Made by a program: the position numbers and the translations under genes. A stretch of 64,000 nucleotides of DNA from assembly GCF_054482595.1 (NCBI RefSeq), contig NZ_CM137008.1; one strand, given 5' to 3'. The notes beneath the pieces are model-generated. The model did not search any database and was not told the origin of the DNA. It saw only the letters and a list, made by a program, of their open reading frames with translations. This document shows positions 9,023 to 59,501 of this stretch, in pieces (position 1 is the stretch's first letter; each line of letters begins with the position of its first letter).

Positions 9023-9064
9023 GTCATACCACTCGCCTGATTATTTTTAGCTATGTTGGATTTT

Positions 9065-9091
9065 GCCACGGTTTATACCGTGGCTTTTTTT
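9065..9091 (+). terminator. rho-independent terminator after allE
   Basis: Hairpin gccacgg-tttata-ccgtggc followed by a T7 run. Confidence 0.6.
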
Positions 9092-9099
9092 GTAACATT

Positions 9100-9204
9100 G
9101 CCTGATGCGCTTCGCTTATCAGGCCTACATGATCTCTGCAATATATAGAATTTGCGCGATTTTCAGGAAGGATATAGTGCTCATGCAGCATCCGGCATGA
9201 GCAC
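9100..9204. repeat. REP-like palindrome plus a second 27-bp dyad in the allE/glxK convergent gap
   Basis: gcctgatgcgcttcgcttatcaggcctac at 9100-9128; gtgctcatgc...gcatgagcac at 9178-9204. Confidence 0.5.
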
Positions 9205-22266: not shown

Positions 22267-22638
22267 ATGCTTCATACTGCCAATCCCGTCATCAAACACA
22301 AAGCCGGTTTGCTCAATCTGGCTGAAGAACTCAGCAACGTATCAAAAGCCTGTAAAATCATGGGCGTTTCGCGTGATACGTTTTATCGTTACCGCGAACT
22401 GGTCGCTGAAGGCGGTGTGGATGCGCAGATTAATCGTAGTCGCCGCGCTCCTAACCTTAAGAACCGTACCGATGAGGCAACTGAACAGGCTGTTGTTGAT
22501 TACGCCGTCGCTTTCCCGACACATGGTCAGCACCGGGCCAGCAACGAGCTGCGTAAACAGGGGGTTTTTATCTCCGACAGTGGTGTCCGTTCTGTCTGGT
22601 TACTCCATAACCTTGAGAATCTCAAAAGACGATACTGA
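22267..22638 (+). pseudogene. ylbG: truncated transposase-like HTH protein (ylbG-like)
   Basis: 123-aa product from ATG 22267 with AAGAGGT RBS; HTH segment (MGVSRDTFYRYRE) typical of IS transposase N-termini; no catalytic domain follows. Confidence 0.6.
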
Positions 22639-22648
22639 ACAAATTTTA

Positions 22649-22786
22649 TCAGGTGACGTTCCGTAAAAAGTTGTATGGAGTTCTCGATGCAGTCGGCGCG
22701 ACTATCAGTACCCCCGCTGAACCCTGGACTATCGGGCCGCCGTACTGGGGCATGTCACCCTGGCGTGCCGCTGGTTTTCCGCTAAT
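22649..22786 (-). pseudogene. relic of an rhs 5' end (start codon ATT)
   Basis: Minus-strand translation [26 protein letters not shown] matches rhs N-terminus [26 protein letters not shown] at 27827; diverges after about 30 codons, stop at 22649. Confidence 0.55.
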
Positions 22787-23152
22787 GGTTTATTTCCTCT
22801 TTCTTTCCCGGCAAGAATTTATTTTAATCCGGAAGGATTATTTATTTTCAGATAGGGACTCACATTAAACACGTAACATTTTAATTAATGCATGGCTGAA
22901 TATGTATTACACAATGTCAGATATCGTAAAAGACCAGTGCAATTCTATGTAAACTCTCTGACTGTTCATTTTATTTGTTGCTTCAGGGTCGGAACTCACC
23001 CTCAATAAACAACTGAATACGAGTAGATATTCATCGTCTGAGCTATATGGCTTTACACAATAGCCGACATGTCTTTTCTCAGTCAGGATTTTTACTTTTC
23101 CTCACTACGAAGTTGACGACTTCGATATGGGATAGACTCTTAATTCAAGCAA

Positions 23153-23644
23153 TTACTCTGCACAAGCATCAGGCAATCCAGCTCCAATATTTGTTATAAA
23201 ATAATGCGTAACATTAATTTCACCAACAAAAAAAAGATTTACGCTATCCCCTTGCCCTGGTATTTTACCATATTTACACCACACTTTTTTTGTATCTGGA
23301 TCATTCTTTGATACGATTTTCGCCACTTGTTCCCTGGCCCTCACCGTCAATGTTTTCTTAAACCTCCCCCCATCATCGATTGTTAGGGAAAAATAAGAAA
23401 AAAAATAATCATCTTCTACATTTGTGGATATTGATATATCCACCGCTACGTGCGGAAAAAAATCTGGGAGCCATGTAAAAACTCCATCATTTTCTGGTAT
23501 TGCCATATAGTTTATGTAATGCTTACTTACAAGAGATTCATCTTTGTGTAAATAAAGATAAGTAGTCACGCATAAAAAAACAACGATTATAATAGCAAAA
23601 ATAAATATTACCATCTTTGAGATGTTACTTGAGATAGCCACCAT
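23153..23644 (-). CDS. putative Rhs immunity protein, N-terminal membrane anchor
   Basis: 163-aa AT-rich ORF whose ATG lies 20 nt inside the rhs 3' end; hydrophobic N-terminus ([15 protein letters not shown]). Confidence 0.7.
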
Positions 23645-26600
23645 CTTGTAAAGCCTTTATCGTTTTTTTATGCTCTGGATTAATATAATCAATACATCTA
23701 TTTGAGCAATCTTGTGTTAATGGACATGTCAACCCATGTTCATTTACAGCCAAGTCTTTTTTATTATCTTCAATCATCTCAGAATGGGATAACTTTACTT
23801 TTCTGCCGTACATACCGAACATATTTAACCCGTAATCTCTAATCTCTTTTTCATAACCCAGCCCTTTCGCCGATCGGCTAACACCAGCGTCATTTAATTT
23901 AGACACTCGACAAAATGCCATACAATGGAAAAATTGATCAGTCCCACCTAAATTTAATCTCTTCATATCATCATAAGTATCAGATAATATATCCCATGCT
24001 CTTTGATGGTTTAGTTGTTCTTTTTTTCGCATTAACGCTACATCTGCAGGACTTAACCCTAATGGATCAATACCATTCACCGGATACGCATACAGACTCC
24101 ATCCCCCCGCCAGCCCAATCGGGTCCTGAGTAATATATCGTCCCAGCAACGGATTGTAGTACCGGTTCCGGTTATAATACAGCCCCGACTCCTCATCATA
24201 CTGCTGCCCTGGCAGACGGTACGGCTGATACACATGATGCGGGTTCTCCTCATTAAGCTGGTTGCCCCATTCATCATATTCCGCGCTCCACGCCGTATTG
24301 CCGTCTTCGCTGATAAGCGCCAGCGGCAGTCCCCGGTGGTCGCAGTGATAAAGATGAGCTTTTCGCGCCGGTGTGTATTCCGGCTCCACCTGTCTGGCCA
24401 GTTGCTCCACCGTCAGCCCGCACTGCGCAAGCCACGCCCGGCTTTCACTGCTCACGCGGTCTGCCCGGATTTCTTCCTCCAGTCTGTCCAGCAGCCGCAC
24501 CAGTTCAGCCGGAAATACCACGCCGTGCCCGTCCTCGCTCCCTTCCTGCTGCAGCTTCTCCGCCAGGCTGCGGCGCTGCGCTTTCTCCCGCTCGCCGTTG
24601 TCTGTTTCGATGCGGATGAGCGGCGCGAAGCTCCCCGGCTGATATACCGTCTGGATACGCGTGGTGTCGGTCTGTACCGTCGTCAGCCGGTCGCCGTCCC
24701 ACCCGTACCACGTCACCTCCGGTTTCCGCGACAGCGACATCCATCCCGTCAGGTCACGCTCGCGACGCCACACCCGTTTCCCTGTCCGGCGACCCAGCGG
24801 GTCGTAAAGGTATCGGCTCTCGACCAGCGGCTCCTCATATTGGATACGGATGTAATGGACCAGGCGGTGCAGGCTGTCGTAATGGTAGTGATGGGTGCGC
24901 TCGTCGTCCGTCCGTATCACACCCGCCGGGATGCGGTCCGTCTTCTCCGTCAGTCTGCCGTATTCATCGTAGTGGTAAACATAGTGCGCATCCTTCGCGA
25001 TGCGGTTATCCGGCCACACTGTGAGGGTACTGTCCGGGTGCAGCTCCGGGTCCGGCAGGCGGTTTCCCGCCGGGTCGGTGGCATACGGGATGCGGATGTC
25101 CAGGTCCGGTGCGAGGGTACGCACGCTCTCCAGCCTGCCCGTGGCGCTGTAGCCGTATTCCCGCGTCTGTCGCGGGCCGCTGATGCGCACCAGGTCGCCG
25201 TTGTCATTCCACCCGTAGTCACGGTCATACACCAGGCTGTTCAGGTGCTGGCTCTGTAACTGGCCTGCGGGGGTGTATGTGCTGGTCAGTTTATATGCGG
25301 CATTACTGCCTGCCATGCTGCCAAAGCTGCGCACCGTCTCCCGGTGCATGCGGTCGCGCGTGTACTCCAGCAGCGGCGTGTCGCCAAGCTTCATGCCCGC
25401 CAGATAACCGCTGCCGTAGGTCAGCCACTCCACCGGCGGCAGGCTGTCCGGCGTGACGCGGTTTGCCAGCCCCTGTTCGTTGTAGGCGTGTGTTGTCTCA
25501 TGCTGCCACAGCAGTTCCCCCGTCTCCGGGTTCTCCACCGTCTGCCGTTCGCCGGTCAGGCGGCCCTTATCGTCGTAGCCGTAGTGGACAGCGACACGGT
25601 GGCCTTCGCTCAGGTGGCTGATGTCTGTCAGCCAGCCGTGGTCATCATACTGCCACTGCTCTGCCGGTTCGCCGTTCACCGTGCGGTGAGTGATACGGTC
25701 CGATTCATCGTAGTACCAGAGGGTGACAAGCCCCTCATCTTCACTCTGCGTGAGTTTTCCGGTCAGGTCATAATGATAACGCTGCGTCCGCCCGTCAAAG
25801 CCGCCCTGCTGTACCAACCGGTCCAGCGCATCGTAGCTGAAGTCGCTGTGGCTGCCGTTCTCGTTAGTCAGACTGATGACACGTCCGGCAGCATCGTACT
25901 CCATACTGCGCGTCAGCCCGCCCTGCGTGGTGCTGACCGCCTTTCCCCACGCATCGTACTGTGTCTCGCTCCGGTTGCCGTCCGGGGTGATAACGGCAGT
26001 CAGGTCGCCTGCGGCGTTGTACTCATACTGCGTTTCACGGCCCTGTGCGTCTTTCACCGAGGTTAACCGGCCACGGTTGTCATAGTGGCGGTAAAGGCTG
26101 ATACCTTCCTCGCGGTGAACCGCCGTCATCTGGCCGAAGCGGTCGTATTCATAGCGGGTCTGGTAGCCCGAGCAGTCGGTGAACGCCAGCAACTGACCGT
26201 AGCGGCTCCACGTCATCTGCCGGGTGCTGCCCGTCGCATCTGTTGTCGTGGCCGGTAATTCACTGTGCGCATCATCATAGCGGTAGCGTACTGTCTCCCC
26301 GCTGCGCGATGTCTCCGTTACCAGCCTGTCCAGTTCATCATATGCCCGGCGGCTCTCCAGCCCGTCCGGGGACACCACCGCCGTCAGCTGGTTCCCGTCG
26401 TTATAGTAAAATTTCGTCTCCCGCCCGTCCGGTGTGGTGATGTCCGTGATATCGCCGGACACCACATTCAGACCGTACTCTGTCCGCCGTCCCGCCGCGT
26501 CCGTCTGCGCCGTGAGCCTTCCTGCCGCGTCATACCCGCTGTGCGTGACGCTGCCATCCGCCAGTTCTTTTTTCACCACCCGTTTCAGCCCGCCTTCACC

Positions 26601-27827
26601 TTCTGTATGCAGCACCTCACGCCGGTTCAGGCTGTCGGTGACGGTGATGCGGTCCTGCTCATACTGGTAGCGGTAACTCAGGCCTGCCGGGTTAAGCTGC
26701 TCCACCACCCGCCCGGTATCGTCGTAGCGGTAGCGCATCTCCGGCCTTCCCGCATAACGGTGCCCCACCATCCGGCCCGGGTGCTGCGCGTCATACGTGA
26801 AAGCGCGCACCTGTGTCCCGCTGCGGTCATATACCGCCAGCAGTTCACCGGCTTCCGTATACGTGTACCGCGCCAGTGGCGCTCCGGGCAGGCTCTCCGG
26901 GTATGCCGGGTCGTGCATCAGCCACACCGCCAAAAGGCGGATACCCCTGTCGGGGCCGTATTCGGTACCGGGCAGTGTGTCGGGGAACGCTGAGGCTGAG
27001 AGAGGGCGGGGTGTGTCAGGGGAAGATAAGGAAGCGGTGCGCTGTTTACGGGCCTCTTCCGCACGCTGCGCCTGCGTGGTCAGCACCAGACGGAACTCCC
27101 GCCCGGCACCGTCCGTCACGCCGGTGATTTCCCCGGCCAGGTCACCGGCGGCCTCACGCCGGTACGTCAGCGTCCGCCCGAAGCGGTCTGCCAGCCCGGT
27201 AAGCACCCGGTACGGCGGCAGCGGCGCTGGCAGTACGTCCTCAGCACCCGGCACCAGCTCTGACCACCCCAGTATCCACCACGGCCCCTGTGCGCTGTTG
27301 GTCGCCAGGTAAAGATGCGGGCTTAACCGGATATCCGGCGGCAGCGACGCCCACAGCCGTGCCAGCGTATGGCCGTCCGGCTGCGTTGCCTTACCGCCAC
27401 GCACCAGCCACAGGGACTCGCTGCGGCTGTACACCGCCTCACCCGGCAGCAGCGGCTCAAAGTGAATGCTCCGTCCGCCGTTGTCGTTGAGTACCAGTGC
27501 ATCATCGCGTATCTGTAAGCGGATATCAGAAGGCGCTTTCCAGCCGGGGCCAAAAATCCCCACCGGTGCAGGCGTCTTCGTCCGGTAGCTGCTGTAGGTG
27601 CGGGAGAGAATGAACGGCAGCGGGCCGGGCAGCGCAAGGTCCGTCTCGCCGGGCAGCACCTTCGCCCCCAGCAGCGGATTTACCGGGTTGCCCGAAGTCA
27701 TCCCGCCCGGACACACCGAGCACGCCACGCCAGTTGGCGCGCCAATTCTTACACCTGCCGAACCCTGGACAATGGGACCGCCATACTGAGTCATATCTCC
27801 CTGACGCGCCGCTGGTTTTCCGCTCAT
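23625..27827 (-). CDS. rhsD: Rhs-family polymorphic toxin: PAAR-like N-terminus, YD-repeat core, variable C-terminal toxin domain
   Basis: 1400-aa ORF; many YD repeats; core ends at [10 protein letters not shown] (about 24045-24060) followed by about 143 aa of AT-rich unique sequence; sits between ybbP and selU. Confidence 0.92.
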
Positions 27828-42269: not shown

Positions 42270-43010
<741 letters not shown>

Positions 43011-43032: not shown

Positions 43033-43375
43033 TTACGCGACCTTTTTTGCACGCTCTTCACGGCGTGCCAAATATTCAGCCACTGTTTCAATCCGTCCCA
43101 ATTCTTCCTGGGTACGCATGTTGTTTTCAACTTCCCAAAGATCAACTGCCGCCTGGAGGTTTAGCCAAAAATCGACTGTGGTATCAAAAACTTTCGCCAG
43201 ACGGAATGCCATTTCAGTGGTGAGTTTACGATTATTATTGATCAGTGTACTGACGTTATTACGATGAACATGCAGCAACTCTGCTAACTCATTGATTTTC
43301 AAAGCGAGCGGTTCCAGATTATTCATAGAGAAGAATATCTCCGGGTGTCGTCGGTTTTCTTGTTGCCTGTTTCAT
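43033..43375 (-). pseudogene. ybaQ: HigA/Xre-like HTH regulator, apparently frameshifted
   Basis: 18-codon ORF from ATG 43375 (MKQATRKPTTPGDILLYE) stops at TAA 43321-43319, overlapping the 97-aa HTH ORF (43326-43033) in the +1 frame. Confidence 0.6.
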
Positions 43376-43512: not shown

Positions 43513-44307
43513 ATGGATCTGTTGTACCGGGTAAAAACGCTTTGGGCCGCGCTGCGCGGTAATCATTACTCCTGGCCTGCCATCGATATCACCCTCCCCG
43601 GCAATCGCCATTTTCATCTGATTGGCAGTATTCATATGGGTAGCCACGATATGGCTCCCCTGCCCGCCCGTTTGCTCAAAAAGCTCAAAAACGCCGATGC
43701 GCTGATCGTCGAGGCGGATGTTTCCACCAGCGATACGCCTTTTGCTAATTTGCCTGCCTGCGAGGCGCTGGAAGAGCGTATTAGCGAGGAGCAATTACAA
43801 AATCTGCAGCACATTAGCCAGGTGATGGGCATTTCTCCGTCACTCTTTTCTACCCAACCGCTGTGGCAAATCGCGATGGTTCTTCAGGCGACGCAGGCAC
43901 AAAAACTGGGGCTGCGGGCAGAATACGGTATCGATTACCAGTTATTGCAGGCGGCGAAGCAACAACATAAACCCGTGATTGAACTGGAAGGGGCTGAAAA
44001 CCAGATTGCCATGTTGCTCCAGCTCCCTGACAAAGGACTGGCGCTGCTGGACGATACGCTGACCCACTGGCATACCAACGCACGGTTGCTGCAACAAATG
44101 ATGAGCTGGTGGCTGAATGCGCCGCCGCAAAATAATGAAATAACGCTGCCCAATACGTTCAGTCAGTCGCTGTACGATGTGCTGATGCATCAGCGAAATC
44201 TCGCCTGGCGGGATAAATTACGCGCCATGCCGCCGGGGCGATATGTGGTCGCGGTCGGTGCACTACACCTGTATGGAGAAGGGAATTTGCCGCAAATGTT
44301 GCGCTAA
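43513..44307 (+). CDS. ybaP: TraB/GumN-family protein
   Basis: 264-aa ORF; synteny. Confidence 0.88.
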   Translation: MDLLYRVKTLWAALRGNHYSWPAIDITLPGNRHFHLIGSIHMGSHDMAPLPARLLKKLKNADALIVEADVSTSDTPFANLPACEALEERISEEQLQNLQHISQVMGISPSLFSTQPLWQIAMVLQATQAQKLGLRAEYGIDYQLLQAAKQQHKPVIELEGAENQIAMLLQLPDKGLALLDDTLTHWHTNARLLQQMMSWWLNAPPQNNEITLPNTFSQSLYDVLMHQRNLAWRDKLRAMPPGRYVVAVGALHLYGEGNLPQMLR

Positions 44308-44389
44308 AAAAATGGCCAATATCGCTATTGGCCCGTCAAAGAGGAATTTCATTTTTTTATTATTATGCCGTCACTTTAAGCGACGGTGT
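44306..44389 (-). ncRNA. chiX: ChiX (MicM/SroB) Hfq-dependent sRNA
   Basis: Minus strand reads ACACCGUCGCUUAAAGUGACGGCAUAAUAAUAAAAAAAUGAAAUUCCUCUUUGACGGGCCAAUAGCGAUAUUGGCCAUUUUUUU, 84 nt, matching remembered ChiX. Confidence 0.85.
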
Positions 44390-50040: not shown

Positions 50041-50149
50041 GCCGGATGTAAAATATGAAAAATATGTAGGCATGATAAGACGCGCCAGCGTCGCATCGGG
50101 CATCGAGAGCCAAATGCCAGATGCGGCGTGAACGCCTTATCTGGCCTAC
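50041..50149. repeat. REP/BIME element between convergent ybaL and gsk
   Basis: REP-family palindromes gccggatg...gtaggcatgataagacgcgccagcgtcgcatc...gcggcgtgaacgccttatctggcctac. Confidence 0.7.
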
Positions 50150-57569: not shown

Positions 57570-59501
57570 TCAAATGGGGCGGATACTTTCTTCATCCAGC
57601 TCCGCATCGAAGAACCGACGCAGGGTCTGAATATTATTATCCGCAATAATGGACTCGCGCGCCTGCGCAAGTTTTTCTTCGTATATCGCCTGACGCCACT
57701 CCAGCGGCGTACGCACCGCGGGATTATCATCTTCAACGATAGTCAGTTCAACCGTTGAACCTTTTAACGTGCTCAACGCTTCAGCCAGTTTTTGCTGTGC
57801 ACCGCGGTTGTTCAAATGCCGCTGAGAGGAGCGCAAATGCAGACATACTGCGTTGTCGCTCTCCTCTTTCCAGGCATTTAAGGCCACCTGTTCGACCAGT
57901 TTTGGTAGCGAAAGTTGACTCACCTGTGCCGCCCACGCGTCGCGCTCAATGGCTTCTGCCGCCAGCTTCGCCGCCAGTTCCGGCGTTTTTTCATGTTCCA
58001 GCGCTTTTTTCAGCGCCTTCGGCGTGGCGACCACTTCTTTTTGCTGCATCACTGGAGTGGTAGCCTTCCAGCGATACGCTTCTTTTTTGGCTGGCGCTTT
58101 TTCCAGCGCCGATGGCACCGGACGCGCCTGAACGCGATCGGTGACCGAAGCCAGTCTTTCCAGCGCAGCGTTATTCACCGGCCGCGCGCGGGTAGCGGCT
58201 GCCGGTTCACTCTTTTTTGCTTTGGTTGCTCCCTGCACGCGCTGCAACTGCTGGCGCGCCGCCAGCACCTGGCTGGTGGTTTCCGGGAGCGGTACAGTCG
58301 GTGCCTGCTGCGGCGCTGATTGCGGTTGCGGCGGCACCTGGGTTGGCGTCATTACTGCCGTTGGCGCGACGGGCGCAAAGGACTGGCGTGGCACTTCTGG
58401 CTCAGGCAGAGGCATACGTGGATGGAACGCCAGCGCGCGCAGCAGCGTCATCTCAACGCCCATGCGGCGGTCCGGCGCATACGGTAATTCTTTGCGACCA
58501 ATCAACAGCGTCTGATAGTAAAGCTGAATATCCGTCGGCGGTATGGTGCGCGCCAGTTCACGCATCCGCAGCTCAATGGCGGCCATGTCGTTGCCAAGTG
58601 CAGCAGGCGAAAGTTGTACCATCGCAATACGATGCAACAGGCCGAGCATTTCCACCAGCAACGCTTCCCACTCGATACCACGGGCAGCGGCTTCATTAAT
58701 CAGCGCCATTACGCGCTCGCCGTTGGCCTCGACCATCGCTTCAACCAGCGACAGCGCCTGATCGTCGTCAAGCGTACCCAGCATCGCACTGACTGCCTGG
58801 GTTGAAACCTGGCCGTCACCGCTGGCAATCGCCTGGTCGGTCAGACTTAAGGCATCTCGCAGGCTGCCTTCAGCGGCGCGCGCCAGCAATTGCAACGCCC
58901 GCGGCTCGTGAGCGATATGTTCTTCGTTGAGGATGTGCTCAAGTTGATGGCGAATTTGCTCGACATCCAGCGCCTTGAGATGAAATTGCAAACAGCGCGA
59001 CAAAATCGTCACCGGCAATTTCTGTGGATCGGTCGTCGCCAGCAGAAACTTAACGTGCTCCGGCGGCTCTTCAAGGGTTTTTAACAGTGCGTTAAAGCTG
59101 TGGCGCGACAGCATATGCACTTCGTCGATCAGATAAACTTTGAAACGACCACGCGCCGGAGCGTACTGGACGTTATCCAGCAGGTCGCGGGTATCTTCAA
59201 CTTTGGTGCGCGAGGCGGCGTCGATTTCAATCAGATCGACAAAGCGCCCCTGCTCGATTTCACGACAGTTATCGCACACGCCGCACGGCGTCGCGGTAAT
59301 GCCGGTTTCGCAGTTTAGCCCCTTCGCCAGCAGTCGGGCGATAGAGGTTTTTCCGACGCCACGGGTACCGGAAAAAAGATAAGCATGATGAATACGCCCT
59401 AACGACAAGCCGTTCGCCAGTGCGGTCAGCACATGTTCCTGGCCGACGACGTCAGCAAAGGTTTGTGGGCGCCATTTTCGGGCTAAGACCTGATAACTCA
59501 T
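57570..59501 (-). CDS. dnaX: DNA polymerase III tau subunit (gamma made by -1 frameshift)
   Basis: 643-aa ORF; AAA+ Walker A GTRGVGKTS; internal frameshift signal at 58176-58218. Confidence 0.95.
   Translation of the reverse strand: MSYQVLARKWRPQTFADVVGQEHVLTALANGLSLGRIHHAYLFSGTRGVGKTSIARLLAKGLNCETGITATPCGVCDNCREIEQGRFVDLIEIDAASRTKVEDTRDLLDNVQYAPARGRFKVYLIDEVHMLSRHSFNALLKTLEEPPEHVKFLLATTDPQKLPVTILSRCLQFHLKALDVEQIRHQLEHILNEEHIAHEPRALQLLARAAEGSLRDALSLTDQAIASGDGQVSTQAVSAMLGTLDDDQALSLVEAMVEANGERVMALINEAAARGIEWEALLVEMLGLLHRIAMVQLSPAALGNDMAAIELRMRELARTIPPTDIQLYYQTLLIGRKELPYAPDRRMGVEMTLLRALAFHPRMPLPEPEVPRQSFAPVAPTAVMTPTQVPPQPQSAPQQAPTVPLPETTSQVLAARQQLQRVQGATKAKKSEPAAATRARPVNNAALERLASVTDRVQARPVPSALEKAPAKKEAYRWKATTPVMQQKEVVATPKALKKALEHEKTPELAAKLAAEAIERDAWAAQVSQLSLPKLVEQVALNAWKEESDNAVCLHLRSSQRHLNNRGAQQKLAEALSTLKGSTVELTIVEDDNPAVRTPLEWRQAIYEEKLAQARESIIADNNIQTLRRFFDAELDEESIRPI
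58176..58218 (-). other. dnaX programmed -1 ribosomal frameshift site (slippery heptamer plus stem-loop)
   Basis: Minus strand GCA AAA AAG AGU GAA CCGGCAGCCGCUACCCGCGCGCGGCCGGUGAA; -1 frame reads GAG then UGA. Confidence 0.85.

Follow-up and report, generated by a model that had tools for sequence, protein, structure and literature searches.

The dnaX frameshift cassette of an ordinary Escherichia coli genome is of the reference type

The dnaX site is a main model system for studies of -1 frameshifting. At the sequence A_AAA_AAG of E. coli dnaX, frameshifting reaches about 50% and is followed by termination one codon further on; the resulting gamma subunit has been shown experimentally in K-12, with a tau:gamma ratio of about 1:1 (PMC5009743). 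There is only one tRNA-Lys, whose pairing with AAA is stronger than that with AAG, and a Shine-Dalgarno (SD)-like sequence, which acts via pairing with rRNA, is a major feature of dnaX frameshifting (PMC5009743, PMC6771820). Slippage of two tRNAs takes place mainly during translocation, which is hindered by the stem-loop (PMC6771820), and a slow route in which one tRNA slips is used when aminoacyl-tRNA is limiting (PMC5009743, PMC6771820). The ribosomal frameshifting of E. coli dnaX has also been reconstituted in vitro on defined mRNAs (PMC5009743, PMC6771820).

Signals composed of a slippery X XXY YYZ sequence and a downstream structure are likewise found in IS911, IBV 1a/1b and HIV gag-pol, and many IS elements possess an upstream SD sequence (PMC5009743, PMC6771820). 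In IS911, IBV 1a/1b and HIV gag-pol, translation continues into a new ORF after the shift and the protein becomes longer, whereas the shift in dnaX truncates the protein after one codon. The dnaX genes of Thermus thermophilus and Caulobacter crescentus resemble the locus described here in that one gene leads to tau and a shorter gamma (PMC5009743); however, these species use other mechanisms, namely transcriptional slippage and proteolysis, respectively, while our locus lacks a run of 9 A and does not need cleavage.

The DNA analysed here, referred to as the window, is a stretch of 64,000 nucleotides of contig NZ_CM137008.1 (NCBI RefSeq assembly GCF_054482595.1). It contains an ORF of 643 amino acids on the minus strand (57570-59501), which corresponds to tau, the zero-frame product of dnaX. 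The assignment to E. coli dnaX is based on sequence comparisons: the ORF reaches 982 bits with NF005942, the NCBIfam equivalog for DNA polymerase III subunit gamma/tau (cut-off 613), and many complete E. coli chromosomes carry a dnaX gene that is 100% identical to it. The surrounding genes are arranged in the order htpG-recR-ybaB-dnaX-apt-ybaN, all of which are located on the minus strand. A search of E. coli genomes revealed that dnaX is present as a single copy in 5424 of 5426 genomes. Compared to dnaX of K-12 MG1655, the gene differs at 21 nucleotides, which results in two amino acid changes, P522A and M578T, both located in the part of dnaX that is only translated in tau. The Pfam matches to the clamp-loader ATPase domains and to domain III fall within residues 20-358 of DnaX; the match to the DnaB-binding domain IV covers tau residues 417-498, and that to the polymerase-alpha-binding domain V covers tau residues 500-640. 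The whole 64-kb window differs from the corresponding region of E. coli strain SM107 by three bases, and the genome is that of an ordinary E. coli, in which the frameshift signal is intact and of the reference type.

Outside of dnaX, the window contains several other elements. The spacer between copA and ybaQ is filled by seven units of RF02564 (naRNA4, a REP-type repeat), which follow each other head to tail every 101 bp (42324-43007), and RF02564 is also found at 50069-50146. The copA-ybaQ spacer has a length of about 820 bp in the window and of about 316 bp in K-12; thus, the repeat copy number differs between strains. The adjacent gene ybaQ (43033-43375, minus strand), which encodes a HigA-family antitoxin-like regulator, contains one extra A after codon 18 in comparison to K-12, near position 43320, and its frame is therefore broken; in strain SM107, which is near-identical, the annotation lists ybaQ as a frameshifted pseudogene. 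Rfam models further identify the small RNA sroB/ChiX beside ybaP (44306-44389, minus strand) as well as STnc480 and ES036 in the allE-glxK spacer (9029-9095 and 9121-9163, minus strand). A gene for an RHS element core protein (23625-27827, minus strand) is followed by a small ORF (23153-23644) and adjoined by pseudogene fragments, namely ylbG and a hypothetical gene that is truncated; variable regions such as this one (22267-27827) are typical of Rhs loci.

Within dnaX, positions 58173-58237 of the minus strand match the Rfam model RF00382 (DnaX ribosomal frameshifting element) over model positions 1-65 of 65 with a score of 96.8 bits (E = 5.8e-20; gathering threshold, 35 bits). The same interval is labelled "DnaX frameshifting element" in the RefSeq annotation produced by PGAP (sequence_feature L124 19173-19237). 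None of the 21 nucleotide differences to K-12 is located between nucleotides 1129 and 1439 of the gene, and the 65-nt element is therefore identical to that of the K-12 reference. Thus, window and K-12 share all parts of the cassette, i.e., the AGGGAG motif 10 nt upstream of the heptamer, the heptamer itself, the spacer, the stem, the GAG-UGA sequence and a gamma protein of 431 amino acids, and differ only elsewhere in the gene. Of 5423 E. coli genomes, 5372 carry the element with an identity of at least 99%, and the other 51 with an identity between 95 and 99%. The site is the reference dnaX frameshift cassette, a textbook example that is already known and annotated. The original prediction, which was made from the letters of the window, had described it as textbook recoding in dnaX with a heptamer and a stem present in the sequence, and the identity of the gene, the slippery phase and the full-length RF00382 match as well as the comparison to K-12 bear this out.

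The slippery heptamer A AAA AAG is located at positions 58212-58218 of the minus strand, to the base where it had been predicted. It corresponds to nucleotides 1284-1290 of the 1932-nt gene and, as revealed by a script-based phase check, lies in the X XXY YYZ phase of the 643-aa ORF: its first base is the third position of a zero-frame codon, and the zero frame reads Lys-Lys across it. The minus strand of the window from 58240 to 58170 reads GCGUGCAGGGAGCAACCAAAGCAAAAAAGAGUGAACCGGCAGCCGCUACCCGCGCGCGGCCGGUGAAUAAC, and the RNA at the site is ...GCA AAA AAG AGU GAA CCG GCA GCC GCU ACC CGC GCG CGG CCG GUG.... The zero-frame translation around the heptamer is ...RVQGATKAKKSEPAAATRARPVNN, which contains ...KAKKS..., while the translation of the -1 frame is ...SKKE and ends there, since one GAG codon (58212-58210) is followed by the stop codon UGA (58207-58209, minus strand). 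The predicted coding region of gamma thus spans 58207-59501 on the minus strand; it consists of the zero frame from 59501 to 58212 and the -1 frame from base 58212 onwards, which is read a second time after the slip. The resulting protein of 431 amino acids is composed of tau residues 1-430 plus one Glu and has the C-terminus ...KAKKE. It ends at nucleotide 1295 of the gene, the identical base at which the K-12 gamma CDS YP_009518751.1 ends, so that the short gamma product with UGA after one codon, which had been proposed from the sequence, agrees with the reference. In the PDB, DnaX chains of 643 and 431 amino acids are present, and the 431-aa chain matches residues 1-430 (8giy). With matches to domains IV and V that start at residues 417 and 500, respectively, the shift at codon 430 falls early in domain IV, and gamma would lack most of this domain as well as the whole of domain V. 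It had also been stated that a plain ORF caller misses gamma. This is true for the ORF list, which contains the 643-aa product only, but not for standard annotation: PGAP marks the site, and in the K-12 record tau and gamma have entries of their own, with a gamma CDS joined from two pieces.

Two putative stimulators flank the heptamer. The 5' stimulator is an internal SD-like AGGGAG motif at 58229-58234 of the minus strand, which lies inside the RF00382 match, is separated from the heptamer by a spacer of 10 nt and is assigned its role from the literature. The span of 58176-58218 that had been given for the signal includes both heptamer and stem; however, it omits this motif, and the full signal is wider. 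The 3' stimulator is a stem-loop at 58177-58206 of the minus strand, which is formed by a 5' arm (58206-58195), the loop UACCC (58194-58190) and a 3' arm (58189-58177). Its stem comprises 11 bp and is interrupted by a single bulged C and a single A·G apposition, in agreement with the 11-bp stem with bulged C and A:G apposition that is described, together with an SD stimulator, for E. coli dnaX (PMC5009743). In the structure line of RF00382, the pair A32-U61 and the outer helix CCGGC/GCCGG are followed by the A·G apposition, two G-C/C-G pairs, the bulged C, three further pairs and the UACCC loop. The arms CCGGCAGCCGC (58205-58195) and GCGGCCGG (58185-58178) that had been named as a GC-rich stem are present at these positions, but the 3' arm had been quoted incompletely and actually reads GCGCGCGGCCGG(U); because of the bulged C and the A·G apposition, the arms as first quoted do not form a perfect inverted repeat. 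The spacer between heptamer and hairpin (AGUGAA) has a length of 5-6 nt, and the CCGG arm begins 6 nt past the heptamer.

RNAfold reproduces the pairs of the Rfam structure and assigns -16.3 kcal/mol to the 28-nt core. Among the 1903 30-nt windows of dnaX, the stem-loop ranks first in stability with -18.0 kcal/mol (mean -5.9, sd 3.3). The minimum free energy of a 71-nt stretch compared to shuffled sequences is unexceptional (z = -1.16), which is uninformative since the stretch is GC-rich and its shuffles fold well, too; the rank within the gene and comparative analysis were used in place of the shuffle-based folding energy. Second in stability among these 30-nt windows is a GC-rich hairpin that directly precedes the SD-like motif on its 5' side (gene nucleotides ~1228-1260, ~58274-58242, minus strand). 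It was considered as an extra stimulator and rejected: its folds vary by species, and RNAalifold finds no consensus pairs in 24 sequences of Enterobacterales. This hairpin probably reflects GC-rich Ala and Arg codons.

The sequence AAAAAAG occurs 24 times in the window, compared to an expected number of about 13, and the heptamer alone is uninformative. Among these 24 sites, only 58218-58212 is preceded by an SD-like motif at a distance of 6-14 nt, and the same site has the strongest downstream fold of all; the composite signal is specific and unique in the window. Two of the other copies are located in the tau-only part of dnaX (58082-58088 and 58004-58010, minus strand). Both are read in the phase AAA AAA G, an SD-like motif is absent at either site, and they are probably coincidental. 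The 40 nt downstream of the copy at 58088-58082 fold with -19.2 kcal/mol, and one might speculate that ribosomes which are already on course to make tau give rise to a minor additional recoding product at this copy; this is very unlikely, since the phase is not slippery and the site lacks an SD-like motif.

To what extent the arrangement is shared by relatives was analysed by a scan for the pattern AGGGAG-N10-AAAAAAG-NN-TGA in one genome per species, which found at least 120 loci. Among the matches listed, 23 are dnaX genes of other Enterobacterales, including members of the genera Citrobacter, Enterobacter, Kosakonia, Pluralibacter, Kluyvera, Cedecea, Pantoea, Erwinia, Serratia and others. 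The SD-like motif, the heptamer and the UGA are part of the search pattern, and their invariance in the 23 relatives is therefore imposed by the search and no independent evidence; the hairpin, by contrast, is outside the pattern. In all 23 listed dnaX loci, the heptamer is in phase within an open zero frame and a hairpin is located 5-6 nt downstream of it. In the alignment, 88.7% of the cells are paired compared to 29-50% when the partners are slid against each other, and RNAalifold recovers eight shared core pairs, which are kept in nearly all relatives. The residues encoded between the arms vary (ATRA, PNPA or QNA), while the helix is retained. The stem is closed by A-U in 13 distinct sequences and by G-C in seven; this is the one clearly compensated pair, and it probably arose from one or two events. 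Support by covariation is thin because most stem pairs are invariant, and the conservation may in part act at the protein level, as the arms encode the conserved residues E-P-A-A ... A-R-P.

Two types of stem can be distinguished. The dnaX genes of the Pantoea/Erwinia/Serratia/Cedecea type share the SD-like motif, the heptamer, the -1 frame UGA, the CCGGC/GCCGG outer helix and the distance between heptamer and hairpin with the window. However, their inner helix is GCGC/GCGC or GCGCA/UGCGC, their loop is a different one and the bulged C is missing. The inner three pairs of the Pantoea/Serratia type (GCGC/GCGC) form in another register. The closing pair of this type is G-C, whereas the window has the A-U pair of the E. 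coli type.

Among the matches listed, the other 97 loci are not dnaX. In 70 of these, a start codon is located 3-11 nt past AGGGAG, which identifies them as real ribosome-binding sites that are followed by N-terminal lysines. About 60 of the 70 are found on Collinsella contigs and represent one conserved gene start (AGGGAG, 5 nt, GTG CCA AAA AAG ...). These Collinsella loci were rejected as frameshift sites, as they consist of a real ribosome-binding site followed by Pro-Lys-Lys; they illustrate that the motif of AGGGAG, heptamer and TGA misleads when it is used alone.

Gamma could in principle also be made in other ways. One of these is slippage of RNA polymerase on the A-run, which would give rise to mRNAs with one A more or less that are translated normally. 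The site does contain a run of six A, and transcriptional slippage is used by dnaX of T. thermophilus; bacterial slippage is, however, described for runs of 9 A or T (PMC5009743), a length that the run in the window does not reach. Slippage of this kind would also leave the conserved hairpin at its fixed distance and the SD-like element without any role, and the literature credits gamma of E. coli to ribosomal frameshifting (PMC5009743, PMC6771820), which together make a transcriptional origin extremely unlikely. Equally improbable is the formation of gamma by proteolytic cleavage of tau, for which heptamer and stem would only be incidental. There is a precedent in C. crescentus, in which gamma derives from proteolysis of tau (PMC5009743); yet for E. 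coli gamma is ascribed to 50% frameshifting (PMC5009743), and cleavage would explain neither the full-length Rfam match nor the combination of an in-phase heptamer with a -1 stop nor the spacing in 23 other species.

It might also be argued that heptamer and hairpin occur together by chance, or that the site functions on the plus strand, on which a GC-rich hairpin is followed by a T-run in the manner of an intrinsic terminator. The 24 copies of AAAAAAG in the window and a fold that is not significant in comparison to shuffles would fit the former idea, and the plus strand does read hairpin, then TTCACTCTTTTTTG, as required by the latter. Against both stands the composite signal, which is unique in the window and conserved. 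Moreover, a terminator scan made no call at the plus-strand complement of the site, because the T-run begins too far from the stem, and since htpG, recR, ybaB, dnaX, apt and ybaN are all encoded on the minus strand, there is no plus-strand transcript to terminate. We therefore regard this explanation, too, as hardly credible. In contrast, the reading of the site as the programmed -1 ribosomal frameshift cassette of E. coli dnaX has, in our estimate, a probability of about 97%; no observation speaks against it, and none suggests anything beyond the textbook signal.

According to the programmed -1 frameshift reading, a ribosome that translates the dnaX mRNA would arrive at the tandem Lys codons AAA AAG within A AAA AAG, while the hairpin 5-6 nt downstream, positioned at the mRNA entrance, would hinder translocation. 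At the same time, AGGGAG would pair with the anti-Shine-Dalgarno end of the 16S rRNA, as is known from the literature. The combined strain would cause the two tRNA-Lys to slip back by one base and to re-pair with AAA AAA. Judging from the published efficiency, about half of the ribosomes would then decode GAG, stop at UGA and release gamma, and the remaining half would stay in the zero frame and produce tau, including the DnaB-binding domain IV and the polymerase-alpha-binding domain V. That gamma is produced in this strain is likely by virtue of its sequence identity with K-12.

For genome annotation, dnaX should carry two products; as such, the site serves as a check for correctness and teaches nothing new. 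For the bacterium, the site sets the ratio of tau to gamma in the clamp-loader complex of the replicative polymerase.
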